32,000 nucleotides of DNA from Candidatus Saccharimonadota bacterium (GTDB lineage: Bacteria > Patescibacteriota > Gracilibacteria > BD1-5 > UBA6164), in contig OZ245768.1 of assembly GCA_965227835.1 (NCBI GenBank), positions 1,200,001 through 1,232,000 on the forward strand, given 5' to 3'. How positions within the stretch are numbered: the first letter of the stretch is position 1; each line of letters starts with the position of its first letter. A program made the position numbers and the translations under genes. Below are positions 3,032 to 31,675 of this stretch, in pieces. Below the pieces are notes generated by a model. The model had not been told where the DNA came from, searched no databases, and was given only the letters and a program-made list of their open reading frames with translations.

Positions 3032-4231
3032 ATGTATAAAAGAAACATTGAGAATAAGTTTTTATCTTGGTTAGATAGAGATGAAATACTTATAGTAACA
3101 GGTTCAAGACAGGTTTGAAAGAGCAGTTTTATGAAAAGTATTCAACGAAAACTCAAACAAAAAAATATTTTTTTTAATTTAGAAGATTTTGATATATTAC
3201 AAACATTTGATGAAACACCAAAGAATCTTATTAAAATTCTAGATGAAAAGTTTTGATTAGAAGAAAAAATATATGTTTTTATTGACGAGATACAGTATTT
3301 AAAAAAGCCAAGTCAATTTTTAAAATACATATATGATGAATATAAAAACAGTATAAAACTTATAGTTTCGGGTAGTAGTGCTTTTTATATTGATGAAAAA
3401 TTTGATGATAGCCTAGCTGGAAGAAAAAAAATTTTTTATCTAAGACCTCTTGATTTTAAAGAATTTTTAATATTTAAAGACGAGGAAAGACTTTGAGAAA
3501 AAATAATAGAATTTGATGAATTAACAAATATAACTAAAAATAAAATATATAAATATCTTGAAGAATTTCTTATTTTTTGATGATATCCTAAAGTAGTCCT
3601 AGAGAGAGATAAAGAAATAAAAAAAGAACTTATATGAGAAATAGTTAATTCTTATTTAAAAAAAGATATTTTAGAGTCAAAGATAGAAATGCCTGAAAAG
3701 TTTTTCAAGCTTTATAAAATATTATCAAATCAAAGCTGAAAATTAATAAATGCAAAAGAATTATCAAATACACTGGATATTAGTACAACATCTATAAATA
3801 GATACTTACATGTACTTAAAAAAACTTTCCACTTTTATGAAGTAAAACCTTTTTTTCAGAATATTAGAAAAGAAATCACTAAAATGCCCAAATTTTATAT
3901 TCAAGACCTTTGAATAAAAAATTACTTTGAAAAAAATTTCAATAAAATAGAGTATAGAGTTGATTCTGGAAGTATTTTTGAAACTTTAGTTTTTCATGAA
4001 ATAATAGGAAAAACTCATTTAGATAGTATAAATTTTTGGAGAACTCAAGATAAAAAAGAAATAGATTTTATAATTGATAAAATTCCATATGAAGTAAAAT
4101 TAAGGTATGATTGAAAAAGAATTAATGTAATTGAATATTTTAAAAGAAAATACTTTGAGGAATGAAGAGTAATAACATTGAAAAAAGCTGATAATTCTAA
4201 ATATTTACAATTATACCCTTGGGAAGTTTAA
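3032..4231 (+). CDS. AAA+ ATPase of the AAA_14 / DUF4143 type
   Basis: 399 aa with TGA=Gly. Walker A is TGSRQVGKSS (GGT at 3101 is in frame). Walker B-like is VFIDEIQYL. C-terminal part is YLHVLKKTFHFYEVKPF...WRTQDKKEIDFII, typical of DUF4143 proteins. Start and stop (TAA 4229-4231) are in the same frame. Confidence 0.75.
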
Positions 4232-4348
4232 CGAGTTATCAAGAAAACCCTGAAGAATTCATTTAAAAGAAAAAGAATTATTTAGTTTAATGTTTCAATT
4301 TCTAAAGTTGGAATATTATTTAAAAATTTAAGTAATTTTTGAAAAAAT

Positions 4349-5110
4349 CTATAATTTCTTAAAGATAAATAAATGTTCATGCATAATCAGTAAAAAATTA
4401 GCTTCTTTAGATTTTTTCACCCAAAATCAAGTTGCTTTACAGTTATGCTGTACTTTTATAATATCTTCTTTTAGGTAGAATCAAACATTCAAAAATCTTT
4501 CCATTACTTTAAAAGCAATGGGTTGATACATTTTATTTCTTCTTGTATCTCACATCAATACAGCACAATATTTTCATGGTTTTAATACTCTATAACTCTC
4601 TTTTGCTACTTTTTCTATCTCGTCACAAAATTTATCTATATCATGAATATTTGATAAATCTTCTTTTATTTTTCCATCACTATATTTTATAATATCAGCA
4701 TAAGGAGGATGCATTAATACAAAATCAATACTTTCTTTTTTTAAATCTTTATTTTTTTCGGTGGCATTATATTTTTTTACTATAATTTTAGGTTCCTGTG
4801 ATAAATAAGAGGTTTCAAAATCAAGTAAGTTTTCTGTGAGTTTAATTGCATCAAGATTAATATCATAACAAAGCAAATTTCTATTGAGAAGTTTTGCCTC
4901 AATTGCCGTTGTTCCTCATCAGATCATAGGGTCAAGTAAAAAGTCTCATTCTTTGGAATATCTCAAAATAAGGTTTCTCACTACTTCCGGAGACCAGTTT
5001 CATCTATATTTTGAATTATGTGTCATCCAGTTTCATCTTCTCGGGAAAGACCAAACGGAAGAACATTCTTGTTCAAATTCTGTTGGGGGAAGTTTAAGTT
5101 TTTTAGGCAT
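4349..5110 (-). CDS. DNA amino-methyltransferase (N6-adenine or N4-cytosine), motif I before motif IV
   Basis: 253 aa. N-terminal WSFPRRGNWMTHNSKYRGNWSPEVVRNLILRYSKEGDFLLDPMIGGGTT (AdoMet motif I). HPPY motif IV at 4700-4711. C-terminal GDTRRNKMYQPIAF...IIKVQHN. It extends track ORF 4574..4876 in both directions through TGA. Stop is TAG at 4349-4351. Confidence 0.8.
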
Positions 5111-5420
5111 TTTTCTCAATAAACATATAAAGTTCTACTTCATCTAAAAAATCTAAATATTCAAATTCTTGCCCTACTAAGACAGACTTTGAAAAATAAA
5201 TATTTTCAAGTTTTTCTATTTGTTTACTCCCATTATTTTCTGAAAAGTACCAATCAAAATTTCTTCTTCAAACAGTTAAAAAGTTATTCATATTTATTTT
5301 TTTAATGTCTTTTTCTGATAATCCTTCTTGAAAAACCGGTATACAAAATATTTCTCTAACTTTCAATGTGTCTTTAATTTTTTCAAGCTGATGATAATAA
5401 ACTTTTTTTAAAGTTTTCAT
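5103..5420 (-). CDS. 105-aa ORF of unknown function between the controller and the methyltransferase (candidate small nuclease or toxin)
   Basis: ATG at 5420. The stop TAA (5103-5105) overlaps the methyltransferase ATG (ATGCCTAA), which suggests translational coupling. One in-frame TGA. No motif recognised. An alternative ATG at 5291 would give 62 aa. Confidence 0.45.
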
Positions 5421-5610
5421 TTTTTTCTTTTAATAAAATAATAATTTCAAGTCAAAGAAAATTAAGAATTTTTTGCAAAGTTGGGTTATCAAAATTTTTT
5501 GTTCTTATAGATTTATAAAAATTTTGTTTTGATATTTTTAATTCATTATAAATATCACTTTGCTTTAAGTTTCGTTTTTTTAAAAATTCTTTAATTTGTT
5601 CCTCTAACAT
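5374..5610 (-). CDS. XRE-type helix-turn-helix protein, candidate R-M controller (C) protein
   Basis: 78 aa: MLEEQIKEFLKKRNLKQSDIYNELKISKQNFYKSIRTKNFDNPTLQKILNFLGLEI. This is the classic HTH layout (LKQSDI..ISKQNFYK). Frame checked codon by codon. Its 3' end overlaps ORF 5103..5420 by 47 nt. Confidence 0.6.
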
Positions 5611-5635
5611 TCTTATTTTATTAATTCTTTAAATT

Positions 5636-5658
5636 AAGTCAACTAAATTAGTTTACTT
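5636..5658 (-). promoter_or_regulatory. C-box-like operator palindrome overlapping a -35 element
   Basis: aagtcaactaa-a-ttagtttactt is a 23-bp palindrome with one mismatch, 26-48 nt upstream of the HTH ATG (5610). On the minus strand TTGACT (5642-5637) is followed by 16 nt and then TAAAAT (5620-5615), which ends 4 nt before the ATG. No SD is visible, which suggests a near-leaderless transcript. Confidence 0.4.
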
Positions 5659-5747
5659 TTTGTATATTAAAGATAGACCATTAGAAAATTACTAAATTTA
5701 ATAATAATGTTAATATTTTTCATAAAAAGGTATTTTAAAATATAAAC

Positions 5748-6617
5748 TTATGTAACTAAATCATTTAAAATACCTTTTTTAAGCATTTCAATATTATAAA
5801 TATTTCAATCCATTTTATTGTAAGCTTCTTCTAATGGTTTACTAGCTTCATTCCATCATAACCCATCAGTAATCCAGTAAAATGATATATTTTGATTTTG
5901 CATAAAAGCATACAATCAGGCAAATTCTCAAGCTACTGCTTTTAATTTACTACCTCCTCATCAATAGTAATTTACTTCAAACAAATATAATTTATGATTT
6001 TCACTATTATAAACTGCAAAATCAAATCTTCTACTAGATTTATCTAATTGAACATCAATTCACCACTCTTTTTTCATAAAAATAGTTGTTGCTTGCTGTT
6101 TATACTCAAGTCATGGATTTCTTTCACATAAATCTTTTACAAATTCTTCTACTAACTCTTCCATTAAATCTCATGTTCTGTTTTTTCTCGCATTAGAATC
6201 AAGTCATGTTTCTACTCAAAAAACATAGTCATTTAAATTTGATATATTTTTATTCTCAAAAACATCTTTTAAACCGGATTCTCTGAAAAATAAAAGCATA
6301 TCAGAATCTTTAAAATCTTTTTTGCTATTAAATAAGTGTCTTACTTCAGATACTTCTAGAGTATTTTTATTAAGGATTTGCTTATCAAAATCTCTTACAG
6401 CTATTAAAATAGGTAATATCTCTCTTGTTTCAGGATATTCTTTCAAAATACTTAAAAGCTTATCCTCTATATTATTTTCTCATAAAAGAGAATTTAATAT
6501 ATTTAATTGAACTTTTATTTTAAAAGTATTTTCTTTAATTTTATTAAAATCTGAGAAATAATCCCAAGAAAATATAGAAGATTGCAATGTGGTTATTAGA
6601 TTTTGAAAATTTTGCAT
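5748..6617 (-). CDS. type II restriction endonuclease, DpnII/MboI family (GATC-type by family)
   Basis: 289 aa. Core YVFGVETGLDSNARKNRTGDLMEELV...RRFDFAVYNSENHKLYLFEVNYYGGGGSKLKAVAGEF matches my memory of the DpnII family signature. It extends track ORF 6216..6446. Start, internal stop and final TAA (5748-5750) are all in one frame. Confidence 0.85.
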
Positions 6618-6621
6618 ATTA

Positions 6622-8364
6622 TTAAATTTTTACTTCTTTTAATTCTTTGTTTAAATAATCAGAAAAATCTTTTGATTTAGCTGTATGTACAATATTGTCA
6701 ATTCACTTTTCCGGAGACTTATCATATGAATCTAATATTTTTAACAAAATTCGTAATCAACTATTAAAAACCTCTGTAGATAAATCCTCTAATTTAATTC
6801 ATTTAATTTCAATAAAAGTATAATCATATTTTTGTAAAACAATAACTGTTGTAATTAACATTAAATGAAAAGTAAAATTTCTTATAGAAACTCAATAATT
6901 ATTACTTATTAAATCTTCTTCCATATTTATAATTGAACCATTAACAAACTTATTAATAATACAAACTTTCAAATAAAGTTCTAATGGGACTTTATAATTA
7001 AATATTTTTTTATATGTCTCTGCATCTTTTACTAAAGATGTAGGATTTGCCCTAGCAGTTCAAGGACTTTTAAATAAAACTGTCTCAATATATTGAGCAA
7101 CTTTAGGAATATCAAATATTTTATTTCTGTCTTTATTTAAATTTTTATAATAATTTTTTCTTCTATCATAAAAATAACCTTCAGAAATAAAATATTCTTC
7201 AATATCTCTTTGTAGTCAATCAGTAGCTTTTAGATCAGCAGGTCTAACTGCTGTTTGACTATTTGTAGATTTTATAATTTTATCAATTACTTTTAAATCA
7301 TTACTTTTTATTAATTTTATTAATATGGTTCTCTTTTCATCTTTTAATAAGCTATTATTTTCAGTGAAAAAATTAAAAATTGAATAACTAGTTTGTAATC
7401 AATTTACAATTTGTGAATTTTTTAATCTTAATTTTTTTCATGGTAAAGGAGTTACTTCATCATTAATTATAGTAATTCAATTATTTAACCACAAAAATTC
7501 AATATTTGAATCCTCTTTTAAAGTTTCATAAATGTTATTATTAACTTCAACATTTCATTGCCAATGTCTTACATTATTTTCAAGCATATGTTCTTTAATT
7601 TTTCAGTTATCTCAACTAATAAAATTAAAATAATCTTTTATTTTTGCTTGAACAATATAAGCAACTTTTTCATCGTCTCATCAAAAAACTGTATTTATAT
7701 CATTTTCATATTTTAATATTAATTCATTATCTTCTTGCATTAAATATAATTCTCTTAATTTATGCCTTCAAATAATTGATATTTCAACATCCGTTGGGAT
7801 TTTATCTTTTATAAATCTACACAAAATACCAGATTTATTTTTTACTCACTCTGAAATATTACTTTCATTTCACTTAGAAATATAAATAATATTTATTTTA
7901 ATTTTATTTGTATATATTGGGAAATTATCTAATCATTTTTTTACCATATCAAATTTTGAAATTAATCCTTTATTATAATTTTTTTCTTCTAATTTATCAT
8001 CAAAATAATTATGAAAAGTTGCAATTAACTTATCAAAAGTAATCTCTTTAAAACTATCTGAATCTTTATTTTGAATGAAATATATTTCAAAAGTTGTATT
8101 TTTATTAATCTCTTTATTAGTAATTAAGCTATCTAATTCATCTTTTGTTAAAATAAACTTATCGTCAACTAACAATATTATTGAATCTATTCAACCATCA
8201 GATCATTTATCAACTATTGAAAAATAAATATCTTCAATGTTAATGTTTTTATTTTTTAAAATTTGAGAAATTGAGAAAACATCAAATAAGTTTTTTGATG
8301 ATAAACAATTATTTTTTCAAAATTGAGTTATTATTGAATCAATTAATTTAATATCTATTCACAT
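6622..8364 (-). CDS. AIPR-family (abortive infection phage resistance) protein
   Basis: 580 aa. N-terminal FDVFSISQILKNKNINIEDIYFSIVDKGSDGGIDSIILLVDDK, central WLNNGITIIND and SQIVNGLQTSYSI, all typical AIPR motifs. Same frame as track ORF 7933..8175. It starts 17 nt after the Dam stop and ends 4 nt before the endonuclease ATG. Confidence 0.8.
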
Positions 8365-8381
8365 ATATTTATTATTAAAAA

Positions 8382-9344
8382 CTAATAATTAACAACCACA
8401 ACCTCTTCAATTTCTCCTCTTCAACTCCCATTACTATTTACATTTCTTCTAGCTTTCACTATTTCAAATCTAAATCACTTGTATAATTCTCTTATAAAAG
8501 GAGTATTATGGTTTGATAACATTACATAAACTCATTTTTTATCTAATGCTCTAAATACCTTCGCTAATTTAGATTGCATATCTTGTCAAAATCATGAACT
8601 ATCATAAGAAGTGAAATTTGCACTTGTAGAAAGTACATCATAAGGAGGATCAAAATAAACAAAATCTCATTTTTTTGCTTTCGTTAAGACTTTTTCAAAA
8701 CTTTGTAACTTTATTTCTGCTTTAGTATTATTTAGTAACCTTGAAGTATTTATAATATTATCTCTTTGAATTATATCTGGATTATTATATTTTCAAAAAG
8801 GCACATTAAATTCTCCTTTTGAATTTACTCTGTATAAACCATTAAAGCAAGTTCTATTCAAGTATATAAATCTTCAAGCTCTCTGCAAAGAAGAATATTT
8901 TTTTTGAAAATTCTGTTCTCTGTCCCAAGCTCTAATTTCTAAGAATTTTTCTTTTGAGTATTCTAAAGACTCTAAAAAAGTAATTAACTTTTTAGGTTTT
9001 GTTTTAATTGTTTTATAAACATTAATAAGTTCTTCATTTACATCAGATAAAAAACTTTTTTCTCTCTGCAAGTTAAAAAAAACTGCACCTCATCACAAGA
9101 AAGGTTCAAGATAATCATTAAAATCTTGAGGATATAGTTTTTCAAACTGTGAAATGAGCTGTCTTTTACCTCAAACCCACTTTATGAAAGGCTTTGCTTT
9201 TATCGTATCAATATTTTCTTCAAAGAATTGTTCTCAAGATTTTAAATCATTAAAAAATCATCTCTTAAACCAAGATTGCACAACTTGGATACTGATTCAA
9301 AACTTATTAGCTAATTCTAAATTTATTAATGTAATACTTGCCAT
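8382..9344 (-). CDS. dam: Dam-type (D12 class) N6-adenine DNA methyltransferase with an N-terminal HTH-like extension
   Basis: 320 aa. KPFIKWVGGKRQL (TGA=Gly at 9171-9173), FLGGGAVFF, DVNEELINVYKTIK, NRTCFNGLYRVN, and DPPY at 8640-8651. Same frame as track ORF 8874..9071. An in-frame TAA lies just upstream of the ATG at 9344. Confidence 0.9.
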
Positions 9345-9420
9345 ATTGATTATTTTGCTTTTTTAAACAAGTTCCTAGTTTTTGTTCTAGAAAACTTTTA
9401 ATCCTTCACAAAACCAACTT

Positions 9421-11343
9421 CTAAACCTCCGTAATCATAGCTATAACCATAGGTTCTCTATCAATCTTTCTAGACATAAAAGACTCTAAATCTGTCCTTA
9501 TAATCTTTAATAAATCCTTTTCAGGAATATCAGGAACATCTTTTATAGTATTTTCATAAGTTTCTCTAGATTTTTTTATCAAACTTCTATGCACATTTTT
9601 AACTTCATCTAAATAAACAAGACCTCTAGTTTCAAGTTTTATATGCCCAATTATAGCTCTTGTTTTTTTATCTGCTCTATAATTTATAACCAAAACACCT
9701 GCTTCCATCATCTTCTCCCTAGCTTTCAACACATGTGATCAAGCTATACTCATAGCATATCAATCAATAACTATTTGCTGTATAGGAACCTTTATCTTAG
9801 ATTTGAATATATCTCAAGTATGGGGAGCAAAATCAACTATCTGACCATTGTCTAACAAAAGTATATTATCTTGAGGAAATCAAATACATGTAGCTGTTTT
9901 TCAGTGAATAGTCCTAAAATATAAATCTCAATAAACAGGCATAAAGTATTTTGGTTTTATCAAGTTTAAAAATATTTTTTGTTCTTCTTGAAAAGCATGT
10001 CATCAAGTATGATATTCTCAATCATCTTTTGTTAAAACATTTGCTCAAAGTTTTATCAGTTTATTTATAATGGCAACTACACTTCTATCATTACCCGGAA
10101 CTACACTTGATGAGAAAACTATAGTATCTCACTTTATTATCTCAACTGCACTGTGTGTTCATTCTGCCATCCTAGAAAGAGCTGAAAATTGTTCTCACTG
10201 ACTTCAAGTAGTTATTATAATTTGATTATGAGGAAGTATTCATTCAGTATTTTTAGGTGTCATTTTTTTTACAATACCAAGTTTAATATTTAAATAACCA
10301 AGTTTTCTAGCTATTTCGACATTTTCAATCATACTTCTTCAACTTAAAAATATGGTTTTTCAGTATTTATCAGAAATATCTATAAGTTGCTGTACTCTAG
10401 ATATCCAAGACGAAAAAGCAGCTATTATAAGTCTTCATCTTTTGTGATTTTTAACTATCTCATCAAGAGCTTCTCAAACATTTTTTTCACTCATAGAATG
10501 TCACTTCCTAGGAGAACCTGTAGAATCAGATAAAAAAAGAGTTATTCATCTAGATCATATTTCTCAAATTCTATCTAAATCAGCTGGAGAATCTATAGCT
10601 GGATTTAGATCTATTTTAAAGTCTCATGTATGTACAAATTTAACTCAAGTAGGAGACTCCATATAAAATCAAGCACAATCAGGAACAGAATGATTTACCT
10701 TGAAAAATTCAAAGCTAAGTTGTCATATTTTATGTCTTTTATTACTTCAAGCATCTACTTCTATAAGCACTGCTTTGTCCAAAACTCAAGCCTCTTCTAA
10801 TTGTTTTTTTACAAAACCTATTGTCAGTTTAGTTCAATATAAAGGAGGAAAACCCATTGCAGGATATACATGTTTTAATGCTCAAATATGATCAAGATGA
10901 GCATGAGTAATAACAAAACCTTTTATTTGTGATGTATATTTTGTAAGAAAAGAAACATCGGGTATAGAGTAGTTTACACCCGGTAAGGTATGATCAGTGA
11001 ATTGAACTCAACAGTCTATAAGTATAATATCTTCCCCGTATTGTATCATACTCATATTTTTAGAACCTGTTTCATCATTACCTCAAATAGGTATATATCT
11101 AGTATAACCTTCTCTAATAGTAGGAAGATAAAATTTAGTTTCTGGAAATTTTGATATAAATTTTTCTTGATAATTTATCTGATTTGTATTATTTCTATTG
11201 TTTTGATTACTTTGATTTGATATTTGGTTTTTATTATCTTGTGTATTTTTTGATATAGTTTGGGAAGAATCTTTTTTAAGATTCTCTGATCACAAAAGCA
11301 TATCGTCTAGTTCATTATCTAGCTCATTTAAAATATCTGTCAT
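9421..11343 (-). CDS. rnj: ribonuclease J (beta-CASP metallo-beta-lactamase RNase)
   Basis: 640 aa. THAHLDHIGA at 10879-10908, with the Gly encoded by TGA 10882-10884. Also VHTGDFK, ITTGSQGE and HTGGHA motifs. The C-terminus equals track ORF 9421..9732. Confidence 0.9.
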
Positions 11344-11658
11344 ATAGTTAAATATTAAGGTTTATAAAATTTATTGATAAAATTGGAACAAACAGTCATT
11401 AGAAAAAAAGACAAAGTTATTGAAACTAAAGGCAGTTAATGATAAAATTTTTTATCTTACTTGAATTTTAAAATAGAATCTTTTTGTTTATAGGTCTATG
11501 ATATGATTGTTTTTGAAAGAATTTTATTAAAAAGGAATTTAAAAAATTTATTTTCTTTTATCTAAAACAATTATATTGTTTTTTGTAAAAAATGCAAAAA
11601 ATAACAAAAAAATGTGGGATTAAAAAAATTTAACAATCAAAAAAGTATAATAAAATAT

Positions 11659-14058
11659 CTAGTTTTTTATAAAAAATGGTGTTATGATTCAAGAGAAATC
11701 AAAGGTTATAAAATAAGAACTCTTTATTTCTTCTAAATCATCTAAAGATATTTTTCATATATAAAGATCCTCTAGTTTTCATCAATTTTTTATAAAATCA
11801 TCTAGCTTAAAAAATCAGTTAACATATAGACTATCTTTTGTGAAAATTCATTCATCTGAAAAACTACCCATTCATCTTTTTAGTCTGAGTATGTAGTTAA
11901 AAACTTTTTCTAAATCTCAATTATAATATTGAATCATTTTTTCTAAAAGGTTTTTGTAGGAATTATTCAAAGCATAGCTTAAAAAATAGTATCTTTCAAA
12001 TATAGAGTAAAATTTCCTATCAGATTTTCAAAGAAATCTATTTTGGTTATATATAGCGACAGCCTCTTCTATTTCTAAATAGTTAGCAGTTCAAGAGCTA
12101 AAAATTTTATACTTTATTTTTTTTCAATTAATTCTTCTAAGATAGTGTCATTCTATTTCATGTGCTATTATACTTCTAAGTTCTTTTTTTCAGACTTTAG
12201 CTCAATTTCTAACATAAAGTATATTTCATTTCATCACAAATCTAGCAACTTTCAAACCTTTTTTTAGTTTTATATCTATTTTATAAATATGATTAAATCT
12301 CTTTATAAAATCATTTATTTCATTGAAATTTAGATATTCTTCTTCAACAATCAGAGGCTTTTTTTTATTTATTAAACTATCACAATAATCAAGACTATCT
12401 AGGTTTATATTACCATACAATTTAAGAGAATAGTTTGTAAAAGACTTGTAATCTTTGTTTTCAAATGCTCTCAAAAACATTATTTTATTTTTTATTTCGC
12501 TGTGTTTTCTTTTGTATAGTGAAGATAAAGGAATATCTGATATTTCTATTTTATTGAGTTTTTTTTCAAGCTCATCTAAATTTATATCAAGTTTATTATA
12601 CTCAAATTTGGGTATATATTTTCAAGAAGATTCTATGAATTTGTTTTTCTCTGTTAATATATTTTTTGGTTTTACAGATTCTATTATATTTAGTTTTTTG
12701 TCTATGTTTACTATATCATTATCAATGTTTTTCAAAAGTTCTTCATAGTTTCTTTTTATAGCTATATTTTTTGTTCACTGATTGTCTCAAAGGCTTCAAA
12801 TAGGAAATTCTCATTTTTTATATTTAAATGGATCAAGCAAAAATCATCTAAGAGATATTAATCATAATATTATGTTGGTTTTTCATAAATCATTTATAAT
12901 AAACTTTGTCTTCTTTTTTTCTCAAAGTAGAATTAAATCTAGTTTAATGCTTCATTTTGATATTTGAGAATCACTTAGCTTCAATACATTTTTAGCAAAA
13001 TCTATATCTATACAACTTTGTAAAACACTTGGCTTTATCTCAGAGATGTATTTGTATGTTTTATTTTCATAAATTATATGTAAATATTCTCTAGATCATA
13101 AAACTTTTTTTCATGAAATGCTTTTAATTTTATCTTCTATATCTCAAGAAAAAAGATCTCTTCAGAGTCTAACTCATTTTTCTACACTGTTTACAAATAT
13201 TCCATCAACTTTTTTTAGTCTATCTTTTAAAGGAGACAAATTTGCCATTTGTAGTTCTAAGCCAGGTCTTATATTAAGTTCTAAAACTAAAGGTCATTTA
13301 TTTTTATCCAAAACTATATCACAACCTAAGTATCATATCTTGCTAACTTGCTGGGTTTTTACTGCAAGAGACAATGCTTCTTCCCAATTTGGCAGTTTTA
13401 GTCATCTTACATCTCAAATACCAGGTATTGATTTTATAATATTTGTATTACTTGTTATATAGGTTAGTTTTCAAGTACCTATATCAATTCCAACTCAACA
13501 TGCTCAAGAGTGTATATTTGCTTTTCATTTAGAAAGTTCAGTAGGAACTCTAAGCATAGCCATCACAGGGACCATATTAAAAACTATTACCCTAATATCT
13601 GGTAGTCAATATTTTCATAGTAGCTCTATTTCTTCATCTAGCTCAACCTTTTTTTCTATTATTATCTTGTCTCTGTTTCAACTTAAAGAATAAAATCAAT
13701 CTAGTATATTTGAAAAATGTGATATCATATCTTTTTTTTCAAAATATTCATAATTGTTTGTAATATATTTACCTTGTGATGAAATTTGAGTAAAAATAAG
13801 TATTCATCTGCCACCAAAGCCCCCACTTGGTTTTACCACAAATGGAGGAATTAGTTTATCAAAAATACTATAATCAAGCATTTCATGGTTATCTAAAATC
13901 TCTATTGTATCTGGAGTTTTTATAAGATTTGTTTTTAAAAATCTTTTAGTTTTTATTTTAGAATCTGCCAGATTTTTCGCTATTTTATTATTATATCATT
14001 TTATATAATCTAGATTTCTAGCATTTTGACCTAAAAGTCAGTATGTTTTGAAAAACAA
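11659..14058 (-). CDS. fusion protein: alpha-L-glutamate-ligase-like ATP-grasp domain plus DUF1704 (QEGLA / MATCAP-like carboxypeptidase) domain
   Basis: 799 aa. N-terminal half has LLGQNARNLDYIKGYNNKIAKNLADSK, VVKPSGGFGGRGILIF, DIRVIVFNMVPVMAMLRVPT..SKGKANIHSGACGVGID and GCDIVLDKNKGPLVLELNIRPGL. C-terminal half has IIAHEIEGHYLRRING and ANYLEIEEAVAIYNQ. Same frame as track ORF 12226..12480. The first in-frame ATG is codon 60, inside the conserved region, so I infer a TTG start at 14058. Confidence 0.7.
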
Positions 14059-18153: not shown

Positions 18154-18368
18154 GTCTGAAATTCTAGTATATAATTCAACATACACTAAAAATTAATATG
18201 ACAACTAAAATCAAACCCGTGTGATGTAATATTTTAAGTATTAGTTAATGGAAATAATTAATAATCATTTTTATTTTAATATTTTCTAGAATGTCAACAT
18301 TTTTTACTTCTATATTTTTTAAACTTATGATAAAGTTAATACAGATATATTTAAAACAAAAACAAAAA

Positions 18369-21200
18369 ATGTGAAATAAAAAATTTAATATAGTTTTTTT
18401 CAGCTTAGTTTGATACTTTTTTTTAATTGCTACAAGCTTTGCTTGAGCTCTTTCATGAACATCAAGATACAGTCAAACTCAAAACAAAAAAGAAGAAACC
18501 CAAGAAGTATGACTTTTAGAAACCATCAAAGACTTCTTTTTCAGCTTAGTGAGTTGGATATTCCTATGAATAATAATATTTCTGCTTTTTTATATTATTG
18601 TAAAAACGATAAGAGTAGCTTTTGAGGTATATTATGCAAAAAATATAAGATATTTGAAGATAACTCTACCAAGAGCAGACTCAAAACTAGATAAAGAACA
18701 AGAAACAAAAAAAGATTTTAAAGAAAAACTAGGAATGATGAGTATGTTTTACAAAGCTATACATAAACTATCTGAAGCTGGACTAAAAGATACATTTTTA
18801 AATACAATATTTTGACATTCAAAAATATCCCTAGAACTTGTTTATGACAAATGAGAAGTTTGCTTTTTTATAACAACATATACAAACTATGTAAGTCTAG
18901 TAATGCAACATCTAACCTCTGTATACAACAACGCAGAAATAATAGTATATGAATGAGTAAAAGACTATGTTAATCTAAAAGAAGAATGATACAGTCTGAG
19001 AGCTGCCTCTCTATGAAAAGAAAAAGATGATTTTTTTCCTATCAAAACCTATAAATACTTAGAAGATGATGCCATAAATAATTTCACAAATGTTTTTTGA
19101 TGATTAAACAAAGATGACAAGGCTGTTTTTCAAATGGTAATAAAACCTGAACCATCTAGTTATAACAAAAAAGCAAAAGAAGCAGCATCAAAAGTAGCAA
19201 AATGAAAGTACAAGGCAAACAAAAAATCAACTTTACAATTTTTATGGAAACCCTTTTGACTTCTTTTTAACCCAATAAGAATAATTTTTGAATGATCAGA
19301 TGCTGCAGTAGCAGATCAAAATAATGCACCATGAGCAAGCCAATGAGATTCTTATAAGATATTCAACCAAGCTGAAACAGAAAGTCAAAAATTGATGTGA
19401 GAAGCTGCTAGCCAACCTGTTTTTGAAACCAGCATAAGAATACTTGTTTCTAGTAAAGACAAACAAAAATCAGAAGATTGAATACATGCAATAGTTGCAG
19501 CTGCTTCTATATTTACAGATGAGTACAATAATGCTTTGGATAACCCTCAAATAATAGAAGATGCTATACCTTGATTGATAACAAAAATAAGATATTTTGC
19601 TTTTAAATACAAACTTGTATGATTTTTACAAAATATATCTTATCTATCAACGGATGAAATAACAACGATTTATCATATGCCTGATATAACTTATAATAAA
19701 TCCCCTATTATAAAATGGCTTGATTATAAAAAACTAGCTCCCCCTCATAATTTAAAAATACCTAAAGAACCTACTTATTTGACAAAAAAAGATCCAAAAA
19801 CAGGAGAAACAAAAAAAATACATATGCACCTCTGAGGTTTTCCAGTTTACAGTGATGGTGTTTTATTGGGATGGAATGAGTATAGAAACAAAAAGACACC
19901 TATATATTTTTCAAAAAAAGACAGAGGAAGACACCAGTATGTTTTATGAAAATCTGGTTGAGGTAAATCTGTATATATAGGTTATCTAGCTAGACAAGAC
20001 CTGCGGAATTGAGAATGATTTTGTGTAGTTGATCCTCATGGAGATTTAGTAGAGGATGTATTGGCATATACACCAAAAGAGAGGGCTAAAAATATTACTA
20101 TTTTTGATCCTGCTGACACAGAGAGACCTATGGGACTTAATATGCTTGAAGTAATATCTAAAGATCCAGATGCTAGAAAAAGAGAAATGGATAGAGCCGC
20201 AATGGATGCAACAGAGATATTTATAAAAATATTTGGTGATGAAATATTTGGTCCAAGAATACAGCATTATTTTAGAAATGGTTGTTTGACTTTAATGGAA
20301 GATAGTGAAGATGGATGAACACTTATAGATGTACCTAGACTTTTTGTAGATGATGCTTTTATGAAATACAAAGTTTCTAAAGTAAAAAATCCTGTAGTTA
20401 AATCATTTTGGGATCATGAATATGCAAATACTTGAGATAGAGAAAAACAAGAAATGATACCTTATTTCTCTTCTAAGTTCGGTCCTTTTGTAACAAACAC
20501 AACTATAAGAAATATAATATGACAACCTAAATCTGCTTTTAATATAAGAGAGTTAATGGATAACCAAGGTGTTTTACTTGTAAATCTTTCAAAAGGTAAA
20601 ATAGGAGCTTTAAATGCTCAGTTACTTTGACTTATTTTCGTATCAAAGATAAATATGGCAGCTATGAGTAGGGCAGATATACCTCAAGATCAAAGAAAAG
20701 ATTTTTATTTATATGTAGATGAGTTTCAAAATTTCGCTACAGAAACTTTTTGAGAAATATTGAGTGAGGCTAGAAAATATAAACTAGCGTTGATTATGGC
20801 TCATCAATTTATAGCTCAAATTTGATGAAATTGATCACAAAAATGAGATAAACCTTCTATTAAAGATGCTGTTTTTGGTAATGCTTGAACACTACAATCT
20901 TTCAAAGTATGAGCAGATGATGCTGAATATTTAGAAAAAGAATATGCCCCTTCTCTTTCTCAGCAAGACATAATAGGTGTTGCTAACTTTACTACGTATG
21001 TAAAACTAAACATAGATAATGCATCAAGTAGACCTTTTGATATAAAAACAATTTGGGATCAGGCTTATGAATATGAAAAAGCTAAAAATGGTGTAACAAT
21101 AGCTGAAATAGTCAGAGAATACTCTAGAAAAAAATACTGAAGAAGAAAAAAGTTTGTGGATTTAGAAATAGAAGCAAGGCTTTGAATAAAATCCGAGTAA
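18369..21200 (+). CDS. membrane-anchored P-loop ATPase, type IV secretion coupling-protein-like (VirD4/TraD/TraG-like)
   Basis: 943 aa. Two N-terminal TM helices. Walker A GKSGGGKS at 19947-19970 (two Gly are TGA), followed by CVVDPHGDL. Walker B YLYVDEFQNFAT (DE at 20718-20723). ARKYKLALIMAHQFIAQI. It runs through track ORF 20061..20318 in the same frame. Stop is TAA at 21198-21200. Confidence 0.7.
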
Positions 21201-21270
21201 CAATATTTTGAAATTTTTTAAATAAAGTGTTATTATTTGGTTGATGTATAAATTTTTAAGAAATAAAAGT

Positions 21271-22257
21271 ATGAAAAACAAAATAAAAAAAATATTTATC
21301 TGTTTAAGTTTTTTAGCAATTTACTTATTATGTTTTTTTGGTGTATCAAATAACTATACTTCAGCAAATATAGACGAAAACATAAATATAAATTTAGTAG
21401 ATGATTGAGATAAAGAAAGAAACAAGGAATTAAATAAATTTTGAAAAAGTGAAGATGGTTTTTTTGGTCTATGAAGTAGACAATGATGACAATGAATTTT
21501 TTATACTTTGGTTGAAATAGCCCAAAGTTTGAAAAATATGTTTTTTATATTAGCTACCTTGTTTTACTTAATAGTTTCTATAAAGCTTTTAGTAGCTGAA
21601 AACACAGAGGAACAAGTTAATAAATTCAAAAAAGCAATTATATGGGTAACTATAGGACTTATTATAATGCAAATAGCTTATTCTTTTACTGTAACACTAT
21701 ATGCAAAAGAAGTTTGAAGCTCTCTAGCTTTCAGTTTTATAAACAACATAGTAAATCCTTTAATATGATTAATGGAAGTACTTGCTTCTATGTTTTTCAT
21801 AGCAATAGCAATATTTGCTTTTTATAGAATGGTTACAGCAAATGGAAAAGAAGAAGAAGTAACTAGAGCTAAAATGTCTATAGTATATGCTATTATTTGA
21901 TTTATTTTAATAAAAGTAGCAAAAATTATAGTAGAATGAGTGTATGGAAAATTAGAATGTGAAGAAACAAGTATAGCAGGATTTAACATAACTACAACTA
22001 GTTGTATATGAGACGCTCAACTAAATACTCTAAGTTTTACTTTTATGCAAATAATAAATTGGGTAAACTCATTTGTGTGAATAATAACAGTACTTCTTAT
22101 AATATATGCTTGATTTAATATACTTTTCTCTGCTGGAGATGATGAAAAAGTTAAAAAAGGTAAAAACACTATAATATATATAGCTATTTGATTATTACTT
22201 TTATCTATAAACTACCTTTTATTAACTTTCTTTATAGTTCCAGAAACAACTATATAA
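21271..22257 (+). CDS. secreted/membrane protein with three tandem VirB2/TrbC-like (T4SS pilin-like) two-helix modules
   Basis: 328 aa. Signal peptide MKNKIKKIFICLSFLAIYLLCFF. Three repeats of the pattern TM helix, small acidic loop with K-rich motif, TM helix. The loops are LVAENTEEQVNKFKKAI, VTANGKEEEVTRAKMSI and FSAGDDEKVKKGKNTI. Same frame as track ORF 21508..21717. An alternative in-frame ATG lies at 21244. Confidence 0.6.
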
Positions 22258-22327
22258 ATAGTTTTTAAAACAGAATAAAAAACAAAATTAGTCTTACCTG
22301 AAAATTTTAATTCTTTTATTTAAAAAA

Positions 22328-23239
22328 ATGAAAAAAAGATACCTAGTTTTAATAGTTTTAGCAATAATTTCTCTTAGTTTATTTTGAGAAACTTTAGCAT
22401 GATATGGAAATATATTGTGATGAGATGAAATTAAAAAATCTTCTATAAATATAGAAGAAAAAATGGATGCTTGATGAGATATAGTATGAAGTATAAATAA
22501 TGTTTGATTTAGTGCTCTTTCTGTAATAAAACTTATTATCCAAGGTTTACTTGTAATATATATAGTTTATGTAGGAGCACAAATGGTTTGGGCTATGTGA
22601 GAAGATGAAGAGACATTAAGTAGTGCAAAAAGACAGATACGGTACAGTGTTATAGCTTTGCTTTTTATAAATATACCTTGAAGTATATATAGAGCTATAA
22701 ACCAAGATAGTTACTCTAAGGTATGAGAAAGGATTAGTAATGATAATTTTTTGGATAAATGAACAGAAACAAATATGTTTTTTGATGTATTTAATTTTTG
22801 ATATACTTTTTGAGATCAGGTAGTCTGATTTTTAGAAGTAACTATTTTAGCTATAGCTATAATAATAATTATATATGAAGGAATTAAACTTATAACAAGT
22901 AGATGAAGAGAAGAAAGAATAACTGAAGCTAAAAACAAAATAGTTTATGGTGTGCTTGCTTTAGTTTTTGTATGAATAATAGAAGCATGGAAGAATTTTG
23001 CTTTTTCTTTCAAAGTTTCTGAAGCAAGGAATATATTTAGCAATTTAGCTGATTTAGCTTTATTTTTCGCTGCTCCTGTTGCATTTTTCTTTTTAACAAT
23101 AGCTGCTTATTATTACATAACTTCAGCTTGAGATGAAGAAAGAATAAAAAAGGCAAAATCTATTGTAATAAATACCATTTTAGCTACACTAATTTTATTA
23201 GCAGCATACACTTTCTTACTTGATTTAGCTGAACTTTAA
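22328..23239 (+). CDS. second protein with three tandem T4SS pilin-like modules
   Basis: 303 aa. Signal peptide MKKRYLVLIVLAIISLSLF. Module loops are WAMGEDEETLSSAKRQI, ITSRGREERITEAKNKI and ITSAGDEERIKKAKSIV, each flanked by hydrophobic helices. Start and stop are in frame. Confidence 0.6.
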
Positions 23240-23264
23240 AAAAATAAATTTTAAATAAATAAAA

Positions 23265-23702
23265 ATGAAAAAAATAGTTTTGTTTGTTTTTGTATTAATA
23301 TTTACATGTTTTTATTCTTCAAATATTTATGCTGAAGATACAGGTACAATAAAAGTAGAAGTTCCAATTAATTTCTCTTGAGTTTTTGGTTCTAATGAAG
23401 AAGGTGGAGTAAAATGTAGCGATACTGCTTGAGATAATGGTAAATATTATTGTAATGTACCGAAATGAACTTCTTGATTTCAAGTTGTTCTTGCTTGAAT
23501 TATTAAGTATTTAATTTTTATAGCAAGTTTAGCTTGAGTTTTATTTATAGTAATAAATGGGATACTTTATACTATGTCTGGTATAAATGATTCTTTAAAA
23601 TCATCAGCAAAAGAGAGGATCATAAAAACTCTTTTGTGAATTATTCTTTTGATTATGAGTTGAGTTATCTTAAATATAATAGCTCCTTGGGTTTATAAGT
23701 AG
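23265..23702 (+). CDS. single-module T4SS pilin-like protein
   Basis: 145 aa. Signal peptide MKKIVLFVFVLIFTCFYSSNIYA, a Cys-containing ectodomain, then a helix, MSGINDSLKSSAKERI, and a second helix. Stop is TAG at 23700-23702. Confidence 0.6.
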
Positions 23703-31004: not shown

Positions 31005-31675
31005 TTTCAACACATCGGGATAAAAACCCCTATCTTTAGATAGTTAAGACACCGAAGGTGTAAGTGATAGAAATTGAATAAATGAGATGTGTTGTGACAT
31101 AGGGTTTTAAACCCCGTTGCCTTCAGGCCGATTCTAAAGAAAAAAGTGTAAAAAATCAATAGAATAAATAAAATAGTGTTAAAAACTAACACTAGAGAGA
31201 ATGAAATACCAAAAAAGTAGTCATGCGACATATGATGTCAGATACCATATAGTATGGATAACAAAATACAGAAATCCATTCATGACAAAAGAGATACAAG
31301 ATAGATTGGAAAAGATCATAAGATGAATAAGTAAAAAGCTATGAGTAATAATAATAAAGATATGAATGGAAGAAGATCATGTACATATGTATTGTAGGAT
31401 ACCGTTAACTAAACCAATATCTACAATAGTATGACATATAAAGTGAGAAAGTTCTAAGGCAATAAAGAGGTATTTTTACAAAGAAATTAAGAGATGGTAT
31501 TGGAAGACATGAAATATATGGTGAGTATGATATTTTGTATCTAGTGTATGAGAGATAAATTGAGAAATAATATCTAATTATGTGGAACAACAGTGAGAAG
31601 AAGAGAATAAGATTGAAGAGATAGAGCTTTAAATTTCAGTACAAATAAAAGCCCCGTGCCTTCAGGCCGGGGTAG
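31005..31675 (+). mobile_element. IS200-type (IS200/IS605 family, tnpA only) insertion sequence; ends approximate
   Basis: A HUH transposase gene is flanked by related GC-rich subterminal hairpins: cg-tt-gcc ttca ggc-cg at 31115-31130 and ccccg-t-gcc ttca ggccgggg at 31652-31672. The left end also carries a long-range 9-bp stem, 31008-31016 with 31086-31094, enclosing two small hairpins. Confidence 0.6.
31201..31632 (+). CDS. tnpA: IS200/IS605 family transposase TnpA (Y1 HUH)
   Basis: 143 aa. SHATYDVRYHIVWITKYR, EEDHVHMY (HUH) and GVGYFVSSVG (catalytic Tyr region). It has eight in-frame TGA read as Gly. Stop is TAA at 31630-31632. Confidence 0.85.

Follow-up and report, generated by a model that had tools for sequence, protein, structure and literature searches.

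A probable exchangeable defence slot, at present held by an AIPR/AbiU-type gene, between the methylase and endonuclease genes of a DpnII-type restriction-modification operon in a code-25 bacterium

Why would a bacterium keep the gene of an abortive-infection protein between the methylase gene and the endonuclease gene of a Type II restriction-modification (R-M) system? This question is raised by a 32,000-nucleotide (nt) stretch of DNA from Candidatus Saccharimonadota bacterium (contig OZ245768.1, positions 1,200,001 to 1,232,000), hereafter called the window, whose positions 1-32000 serve as the coordinates of the locus. Its minus strand carries, in this order of transcription, the genes of a Dam-class DNA methyltransferase (M1), of a protein of the AIPR family and of a DpnII-type endonuclease (R), and further downstream that of a second methyltransferase (M2) (Table 1). 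We propose, with a probability of about 60%, that this is a Type II R-M operon of GATC type with a hypervariable and always occupied cargo slot between M1 and R, the AIPR gene being its present occupant and a co-transcribed, autonomous second layer of defence. A preliminary description of the locus had seen in it an AIPR gene standing in for a second methylase and probably coupled in function to the R-M genes; as a whole, that interpretation is partly supported by the analysis reported here.

The genes become visible only with a non-standard code. With translation table 11, the region 4000-11500 breaks into open reading frames (ORFs) of at most 103 amino acids (aa). When ORFs are called with TAA and TAG as sole stops, three long minus-strand ORFs appear at the coordinates that the preliminary description had given them, with the same gaps of 17 nt between M1 and AIPR and of 4 nt between AIPR and R. 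They contain 14 (M1), 22 (AIPR) and 12 (R) in-frame TGA codons. As had also been described for all three genes, TGA encodes Gly and not Trp (code 25), since the TGA codons sit on conserved Gly columns and never on Trp columns: in a 31-sequence AIPR alignment they fall on invariant or near-invariant Gly columns (G58, 28/29; G270, G296 and G322, 29/29 each), and in M1 they lie within the KWVGGKR and PFLGGGAV motifs. Of 20 genes tabulated across the window, 18 have TGA at 61-94% of their Gly codons; the TGA share is 0.25 in orf105 and 1.0 in a helix-turn-helix (HTH) ORF, both downstream of R. A tRNA scan and an Rfam scan of the window gave no matches, and hence no tRNA-Gly(UCA) as additional evidence for code 25. 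The public database copies of AIPR (P0001) and R (P0121) have been translated with TGA as Trp (code 4), which places Trp where Gly is invariant; their identity to the code-25 translations is 96% in both cases, P0001 being the same sequence with Trp at 22 positions.

The module is resident in its host and its codon usage is fully adapted, because the TGA share of Gly codons in the AIPR gene (0.81) and its GC content at third codon positions (0.09) are within or at the edge of the range of the housekeeping genes of the window, whose overall GC content is about 24%. The earlier opinion that the module was not freshly imported is therefore well founded. In addition, the window contains 47 GATC sites for about 75 expected from its di- or trinucleotide composition (observed/expected ratio about 0.63), with only 4 sites in the 5-kb operon; the ratios of the other four-letter palindromes with adequate counts (GTAC, CATG, CTAG and AGCT) range from 0.83 to 1.11. 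This depletion fits a long exposure to a GATC-cutting enzyme.

Profile searches confirmed the three families named in the preliminary description. M1 matches Pfam MethyltransfD12 (6e-66, residues 56-301), PADLOC MTase_II (1e-100) and TIGR00571 dam (6e-90, 301.5 bits for a cut-off of 114.85), and its translation shows the FxGxG (PFLGGGAV) and DPPY (FDPPYD) motifs of the Dam/DpnM class. R matches Pfam DpnII (PF04556; 3e-90, 302.7 bits) over profile positions 1-277 of 278, as well as PADLOC REase_II (8e-94). The 580-aa protein between them matches Pfam AIPR (PF10592) over residues 261-512 (1e-38, 134.3 bits for a cut-off of 25) and PADLOC AbiU almost from end to end (1.3e-146, 487.9 bits, residues 6-577 of 580, profile positions 4-536 of 537). 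Profile searches with this protein returned no family besides AIPR, except a partial match to the AIPR-family MzaE far below the cut-off.

Are these genes expressed together? The M1/AIPR and AIPR/R junctions have predicted minimum free energies of -3.1 and 0 kcal/mol (z > 0), that is, no RNA structure, and no hairpin separates the genes. Across the R stop codon, an inverted repeat with 27-nt arms that are 81% complementary forms a hairpin with a predicted folding energy of -15.5 kcal/mol (z = -3.2), and 2 of 200 shuffled sequences fold as well. This hairpin is the probable 3' end of an M1-AIPR-R transcript, its role as a terminator being deduced from the sequence. Since the internal junctions are unstructured while a hairpin marks the R stop codon, co-transcription, which had been proposed on the basis of spacing, is plausible, and a single transcript is what we would predict.

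The evidence for a slot comes from the comparison of related loci. We searched from the R side, in metagenome contigs and by contig look-ups for close R homologues (63-87% identity), and, with the window and the AIPR-bearing loci, compared 11 independent loci of a Gracilibacteria/Absconditabacteria-type lineage. Homologues of R make up more than 100 clusters, and several of the close ones are named Candidatus Gracilibacteria or Absconditabacterales by their sources. Together with the code, these names suggest a source of that type for the window as well. The related loci are low in GC, use TGA as a sense codon and have M1, R and M2 in common (63-93% identity). M1 is 63-87% identical across 7 related loci, R 64-87% across 9, and M2, the best conserved of the three, 76-93% across 9. 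These three genes are a conserved scaffold.

In every locus M1 and R are held apart by 1.3-2.1 kb of cargo, and clustering distinguishes 8 cargo types and 9 alleles in the 11 independent loci, among which we found no empty slot. The cargo always lies on the strand of M1 and R, starting 2-29 nt past the M1 stop codon and ending 1-20 nt before the R start. A spacer similar to that of the window follows M1 upstream of AIPR in L085, of Thoeris in L088 and of GmrSD in L090. The order methylase-AIPR-endonuclease described for the window is kept in homologous loci: AIPR orthologues (71-72% identity) occupy the slot in L081, a relative from another sample, which reads M1 end-AIPR-R-M2 with R abutting M2, and in L085, which shows M1-AIPR. 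Since the cargo genes are full of TGA-Gly codons, the cargo pool circulates within code-25 lineages. Upstream of M1, the 160 nt in which a conserved operator was sought are not conserved across loci except in the L088/L090 pair. The first 50 residues of M1 (9344..9195) form an extension ahead of the D12 domain that is conserved in L088 and L090; it is HTH-like by eye and has no Pfam match.

Table 1. Features of the window and cargo found between M1 and R (slot A) in the related loci. Positions refer to the locus named in the first column; aa, amino acids; bp, base pairs; TM, transmembrane.
Locus	Feature	Position	Strand	Remarks
Window	M1, Dam/DpnM-class (D12) N6-adenine DNA methyltransferase, 320 aa	8382..9344	-	First gene of the unit
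Window	M1-to-cargo spacer, 17 nt, TTTTTAATAATAAATAT	8365..8381	-	Left boundary of the variable slot is the cargo ATG
Window	Slot-A cargo, AIPR/AbiU1-type single-gene defence protein, 580 aa	6622..8364	-	Pfam AIPR, PADLOC AbiU
Window	R, DpnII/MboI-family Type II restriction endonuclease, 289 aa	5748..6617	-	Starts 4 nt past the AIPR stop codon
Window	Terminator-like hairpin across the R stop codon	5724..5779	-	16-bp A/U-rich stem, 3' arm ending UUUUU
Window	Slot-B insert, 633 bp	5115..5747	-	Absent from L081
Window	HTH ORF, Cro/C1-type, 78 aa	5610..5374	-	Pfam HTH_26 1.7e-5; PADLOC PDC-M69A 1e-6
Window	orf105, 105 aa	5420..5103	-	Overlaps the HTH ORF and M2; no family match
Window	M2, second DNA methyltransferase, N6_N4_Mtase family, 253 aa	4349..5110	-	Last gene of the conserved scaffold
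Window	AAA_14/DUF4143 ATPase, neighbour outside the operon, convergent with M2	3032..4231	+	Candidate defence gene
Window, L081, L085	Cargo AIPR			
L090	Cargo GmrSD			Pfam GmrSD_N 5e-35, GmrSD_C 2e-14; PADLOC HEC-06 1e-83
L095	Cargo second GmrSD			Only 28% identical to the GmrSD of L090
L088	Cargo complete Thoeris pair			ThsA-Macro 5e-42, ThsB-TIR (PADLOC 1e-62)
L098	Cargo OLD/AriA-like ABC ATPase and 147-aa ORF			PADLOC Old 1e-52
L096, L097	Cargo PIN_8 protein and 227-aa membrane protein	4082-5999 (L096)		
L099-L101	Cargo 173-aa membrane protein and DGQHR DndB/DpdB-like protein	4490-5993 (L099)		Pfam 6e-10, DpdB 5.5e-16
L102	Cargo 705-aa protein	3877-5994		No known family
L089	Cargo 436-aa protein, C-terminal TM helices	125-1435		No known family

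The cargo type does not follow the phylogeny of the scaffold, because the closest scaffolds hold different cargo and a more distant one holds the same. Between the window and L095, identity is 87% for M1, for R and for M2 alike, yet one carries AIPR and the other a GmrSD; likewise, L088 and L090 are 88, 92 and 90% identical in M1, R and M2, yet carry Thoeris and GmrSD, respectively. L081 is more distant from the window (R 75%, M2 79%) and yet has AIPR in common with it (72%). In a base-level alignment of L088 and L090, homology runs through the M1 stop codon and the 17-18-nt spacer, ends at the cargo ATG and resumes about 5 nt before the R ATG. The exchange boundaries coincide with ORF boundaries. 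By sliding-window comparison, the sequence of the window is closest to L095 up to both junctions, and a search for direct and inverted repeats around the cassette found no flanking repeats suggestive of transposition. An allelic exchange of cassettes between near-identical M1 and R arms would be the simplest reading, the mechanism being one that we infer.

One could object that AIPR and the R-M genes are neighbours by clustering alone, with no operonic or evolutionary link between them. Defence genes do cluster in general (PMC12707154), and a candidate matching PADLOC PDC-S01 is found next door in the window. However, it is the two cognate genes of a single R-M system that enclose the cargo; all three share one strand, and the gaps of 17 and 4 nt contain no hairpin. 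Moreover, M1-cargo-R is the order in each of the 11 related loci, even though the chromosomal genes flanking the scaffold differ from one locus to the next, and the AIPR version has been kept over about 25-30% protein divergence (L081, L085). Plain adjacency in a defence island thus appears very improbable to us.

How far does this layout depart from known cassettes? The DpnII system of Streptococcus pneumoniae, LlaDCHI (pSRQ700) and MboI have the same set of families as the scaffold, namely a D12/Dam methylase, an N6_N4-family methylase and a DpnII-family endonuclease. Genes of the classical cassettes adjoin or overlap one another. As the preliminary description had stated, a second methylase separates the Dam methylase from the endonuclease on pSRQ700 and on a Staphylococcus aureus plasmid (M1-M2-R); Psychrobacter and Streptococcus thermophilus plasmids have M-R. 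The window, in contrast, reads M1-AIPR-R-insert-M2. Because the classical plasmid cassettes of DpnII type are contiguous, the M1-cargo-R layout is a real departure from their norm. MboI has the order M1-R-M2, which is the bare scaffold order of L081.

It had been supposed that AIPR takes the place of the second methylase. This is ruled out by the presence of M2 downstream of R and by the unit M1-AIPR-R-M2 of L081. M2 has a permuted motif order, with motif I ahead of HPPY; it matches Pfam N6_N4_Mtase in two stretches (1.2e-25) and PADLOC MTase_II PDLC03376 over its full length (1e-82). By BLAST, M2 has no similarity to the second methylases of L050, L064 and L080, three loci of other organisms that are described below.

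The slot also invites comparison with embedded defences, in which an unrelated defence gene lies on the same strand between the genes of a host system, as do PrrC in EcoprrI, TgvAB and DarTG2 in Type I R-M systems, BrxU in BREX and the HECs in Hma. Embedded genes have the orientation of their host in 96.7% of cases, and GmrSD-like proteins are frequent occupants (Payne 2024). The hsdS-hsdR site has been called a potential recombination hotspot. AIPR, placed between its cognate M1 and R on the same strand, is an embedded defence in the sense of that survey, and so is the cargo of the 11 loci. The survey text describes embedding in Hma, BREX, DISARM and Type I R-M only (Payne 2024), whereas the host is here a small Type II operon, the slot splits the methylase from the endonuclease, and 11 of 11 loci are occupied, by 8 cargo types. 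On the basis of guilt-by-embedding, the four cargo sets with members of no known family (L102, L089, L096 and L099) would be candidate new defence systems. Another likeness is with the pneumococcal dpn locus (DpnI/DpnII/DpnIII; PMC12707154), where cassettes with a GATC theme are exchanged at a fixed site between conserved flanks. There, however, housekeeping genes flank a cassette that consists of an entire R-M system, whereas here it is the R-M genes that flank a cassette of other immune genes.

PrrC suggests another way to look at the AIPR gene. By analogy, AIPR might be held inactive by contact with M1 or R and released by a phage anti-restriction factor, upon which it would abort the infection. 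The PrrC gene does lie within the Type IC locus of EcoprrI, and inhibition of EcoprrI by T4 Stp activates the protein; R-M 'guardian' systems are a recognised class (PMC12707154). The tight embedding and the likely co-translation of the three genes would supply their products in matching amounts. In Type II enzymes of DpnII type, however, M and R act as separate proteins, so that there is no holoenzyme to mask a partner. Furthermore, unrelated proteins take the place of AIPR in other loci and could not all bind one R-M pair, AIPR is mostly solo elsewhere, and we found no evidence that it co-varies with M1 or R. A guardian role modelled on PrrC would consequently be improbable.

What, then, can be said of the AIPR protein itself? 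It resembles AbiU (AbiUi/AbiU1, PF10592) of Lactococcus lactis pND001, as judged from its full-length match to the PADLOC AbiU profile and from the conservation of all invariant residues. It consists of an N-terminal domain (1-255), the AIPR core (about 256-512) and a helical C-terminus. Forty-one columns are invariant in an alignment of 52 homologues, and the window protein matches them all; they include D52, D56, D60, Q98, K100, E107, N264, R266, N321, L323, Q324, R401, R402 and K403, those within residues 1-255 being F27, D52, D56, G57, I59, D60, Q98, K100, E107 and N131. An N-terminal HEPN domain has been stated for AIPR (PMC3506569). In residues 1-255 we found no invariant Arg or His of a HEPN Rx4-6H motif, a judgement made by conservation with no HEPN profile run.

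The protein was modelled with AlphaFold2 from P0001, the version with Trp in place of Gly at 22 positions, and the 52-sequence alignment (pLDDT, the predicted local distance difference test, 85.9; pTM, the predicted template modelling score, 0.79). In the models, D60 precedes strand 61-66 and Q98-x-K100 ends strand 91-100, a pattern that would be typical of PD-(D/E)XK nucleases. Neither the full-length model nor that of the N-domain had a Foldseek match with E <= 0.001. The hits of the N-domain model were the Rpb5 N-domain (E = 0.04), HamA (0.19) and Shedu (0.9), none of them significant, and the best hit of the full-length model was the ParB-N structure 5k5d (E = 0.066, probability 0.5-0.6), again not significant. 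The entry 5K5D, the best non-significant fold match of AIPR in the PDB, is also the one that a 2026 review names as structural match of AbiRii (PMC13064643). PDB sequence searches with three profiles returned nothing useful for AIPR, and hhalign gave non-significant probabilities for the AIPR core against a DGQHR protein (2.6%) and against a GmrSD N-domain (0.3%).

On the experimental side, AbiUi of Lactococcus gives phage resistance when present alone and delays phage transcription (PMC13064643). According to recent papers, AbiUi "resembles a nuclease" and AbiU-1 is a member of the PD-(D/E)XK superfamily. Together with the models, this suggests that AIPR is likely a nuclease-like effector.

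The family owes its name to its frequent occurrence in R-M operons. AIPR genes adjoining R-M genes are already known, this association having been described since 2008, and the window adds a member to it rather than being the uncharacterised case that it had first been taken for. We also surveyed the contexts of AIPR in other organisms by scanning one genome per species and keeping the 80 best AbiU-like loci (29-46% identity). Of 70 upstream neighbours in other species, 67 are unrelated genes, mostly housekeeping, and DpnII is the only defence family that recurs immediately upstream (3/70). The three DpnII-linked loci (L050, L064 and L080) carry in addition a Dam methylase and a canonical N6_N4 methylase, with AIPR as the last gene (M1-M2-R-AIPR in L050 and L064, M2-M1-R-AIPR in L080). 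In a neighbour-joining tree, the AIPRs linked to DpnII, wherever found, fall in three separate clades. The nearest relatives of the window AIPR clade (about 50% identity) are on Firmicutes-type contigs in varied contexts: next to an AAA_5 and DUF2357/PDDEXK_7 pair of McrBC-like look, next to a GmrSD_N protein, or solo. Plasmid copies from Staphylococcus epidermidis, Lactococcus cremoris and Klebsiella pneumoniae are all solo (3/3). The window protein, encoded with TGA as Gly, is about 31-36% identical to the plasmid-borne firmicute copies and differs from the sampled plasmid and chromosomal solo copies in the position of its gene between a Type II M and R. Because 67 of 70 neighbours are unrelated, plasmid copies are solo and AbiUi is sufficient alone, AIPR is most likely autonomous, and the window copy has kept its invariant residues intact.

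The main rival to this autonomy is a coupling gated by methylation, as in AbiR. As a DNA-directed effector, AIPR would read the m6A-GATC mark of M1 as 'self' and attack the host chromosome in the absence of M1; in its presence, it would attack unmethylated or differently modified phage DNA that escapes R, and the order M1-AIPR-R would ensure that the methylase is made first. LlaKR2I, the R-M system concerned in the case of AbiR, recognises GATC and is of Sau3AI type, not of DpnII type. The loci of AbiR flank LlaKR2I, and AbiR needs the LlaKR2I methylase, being toxic without it, a dependence that the preliminary description had correctly stated (PMC13064643). AbiR and LlaKR2I, on the Lactococcus plasmid pKR223, are an example of an Abi system interleaved with an R-M system. 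One AbiR component is ParB-like: AbiRii resembles the ParB-domain nuclease 5K5D (PMC13064643), which is also the best, weak Foldseek match of AIPR (E = 0.07). The recurrence of DpnII upstream of AbiU-like AIPRs, as sole defence family and in three AIPR clades, points the same way, and several slot-A cargos are modification-reading or DGQHR-type (two GmrSDs and the DndB/DpdB-like protein).

However, AbiR consists of three genes with no detected similarity to AIPR, and methylase dependence is experimental for AbiR only. Comparisons of AIPR with ParB and DGQHR proteins gave no significant result (hhalign probabilities below 3%, non-significant fold matches). Most AbiU-like AIPRs have no adjoining methylase, lactococcal AbiUi functions when expressed alone, and three other occupants of the slot, namely Thoeris, an OLD/AriA-like ATPase and PIN_8, are not known as methylation readers. 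Methylation gating would for these reasons be unlikely. The functional coupling of AIPR to GATC, considered in the preliminary description, is accordingly weakened by the other cargos of the slot and by the solo AIPRs found elsewhere, and retains in its favour the AIPRs beside DpnII cassettes in two further unrelated lineages.

A more speculative variant, to be regarded as doubtful, would be that the Dam/DpnII pair is a dedicated acceptor scaffold, with m6A-GATC as a 'self' signal shared by interchangeable DNA-reading effectors (AIPR, GmrSD, DGQHR). If this were true, loss of M1 should make AIPR toxic, just as AbiR depends on the LlaKR2I methylase to remain harmless. A whole rotation of nucleases would then share a single epigenetic mark, and the occupants that have yet to be characterised, namely the protein of 705 aa, the TM protein of 436 aa, PIN_8 with its 227-aa TM partner and the TM partner (173 aa) of the DGQHR protein, would represent new defence systems working on that principle.

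Returning to the reading of an exchangeable slot with an autonomous occupant, the operon could work as follows. M1, AIPR and R would be made from one transcript that ends at the hairpin on the R stop codon. M1 would methylate GATC and R would cut unmethylated GATC, as DpnII and MboI do. AIPR, probably a nuclease-like effector by analogy to lactococcal AbiUi, would act alone as a second layer against phages that escape restriction. Within the population, homologous recombination through the M1 and R arms would exchange the cargo, and the R-M pair, being costly to lose, would stabilise and co-express whatever lies between its genes.

Downstream of R lies a second variable interval. L081 is colinear with the window, with 78% nucleotide identity over 8477..5748 and 77% over 5114..4335, and skips the 633-bp stretch between them. 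As R abuts M2 in L081, the window carries an insertion there (slot B). The HTH ORF of this insert is 81% identical in L088, and relatives of orf105 (83-127 aa) lie directly upstream of M2 in L088, L090, L096 and L102. A promoter-like site at 5642-5615 in the insert comes from a scan that performed no better than chance. The HTH ORF and orf105 might represent a controller protein paired with a small gene, or else what is left of a second R-M system, that of M2. Across the loci, slot B is empty (L081) or holds the HTH ORF with the orf105 family, a family of 170-180-aa ORFs, a REase_II-like ORF or a PD-Lambda-3_A-like ORF. The REase_II-like ORF of L091 (625-1221; PADLOC 5e-23) is just upstream of M2, and so is the 175-aa ORF of L102 (6874-7401), which is weakly PD-(D/E)XK-like with an EVK...GGGGS motif; the PD-Lambda-3_A-like ORF is in L093 (124-435; 5e-12).

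Several points weigh against our interpretation. The sample is limited to 11 loci, the GATC specificity of M1 and R is deduced from family membership, and the single transcript and its terminator are predictions. A scan of 4000-9800 (22% GC) for sigma-70 promoters and terminators found 45 promoter-like sites where 45.9 are expected, which is no better than chance. Sliding-window nucleotide identity revealed no recombination mosaic inside M1 or R, so that the mechanism of exchange is an inferred one. For the putative nuclease-like activity of AIPR, fold searches gave no significant match (best E = 0.04-0.07). Since REase-like ORFs occupy slot B in L091 and L102, M2 may be the methylase of a second, often degraded R-M unit. 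Finally, the presence of AIPR beside DpnII-type cassettes in two other lineages (L050/L064 and L080) hints at a specific affinity that goes beyond 'any cargo'.

Concerning the wider neighbourhood, a housekeeping RNase J gene lies upstream of M1. The ATPase beside M2 matches Pfam AAA_14 (6e-29) and DUF4143 (6e-31) and, over its full length, the PADLOC candidate PDC-S01 (1.5e-86), and on account of this last match the region 3032-9344 is a small defence island. Downstream of the cassette of L088, at 8230-9627, a 465-aa protein consists mostly of tandem repeats of about 40 aa (KPIRVGSNFYDKPFYVGQKPVYKTKYYL-PKTIK). Elsewhere in the window, a 740-aa protein (11659-13881, minus strand) shows the unusual pairing of a sugar-transfer-type ATP-grasp domain (ATPgrasp_ST, 3e-50) fused to a MATCAP-like carboxypeptidase (1.8e-29). 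At 18291-23702 (plus strand), three genes of predicted membrane or secreted proteins (337, 303 and 145 aa) come after that of a 969-aa protein, which has the Walker A motif GKSGGGKS; the set may be a secretion or DNA-transfer module. A 143-aa ORF at 31201-31632 (plus strand; start MKYQKSSHATYDVRYHIVWITKYR) looks by eye like a Y1 transposase (TnpA) of the IS200/IS605 family.

What is new in this locus is a Type II R-M operon in which the methylase and the endonuclease are always parted by a defence cassette that is rapidly exchanged. In this way 'defence embedding', known from the large systems (Type I, BREX, DISARM and Hma), is extended to a minimal one of Type II, and to alternative-code bacteria of Gracilibacteria/Absconditabacteria type, whose immunity has been little studied. 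A pair of D12 methylase and DpnII endonuclease genes no more than about 3 kb apart is moreover a compact, searchable anchor for finding defence genes by embedding. One would also wonder what keeps the cargo between M and R. Selection might favour this position for the sake of co-expression, because an addictive R-M pair stabilises the cargo, or because R is then expressed later after a transfer. The case equally calls for caution against taking a tight position inside an operon as evidence that the genes are mechanistically coupled in a purpose-built way. Rather than a machine specific to AIPR, the operon looks like a place where exchangeable defence genes can dock.

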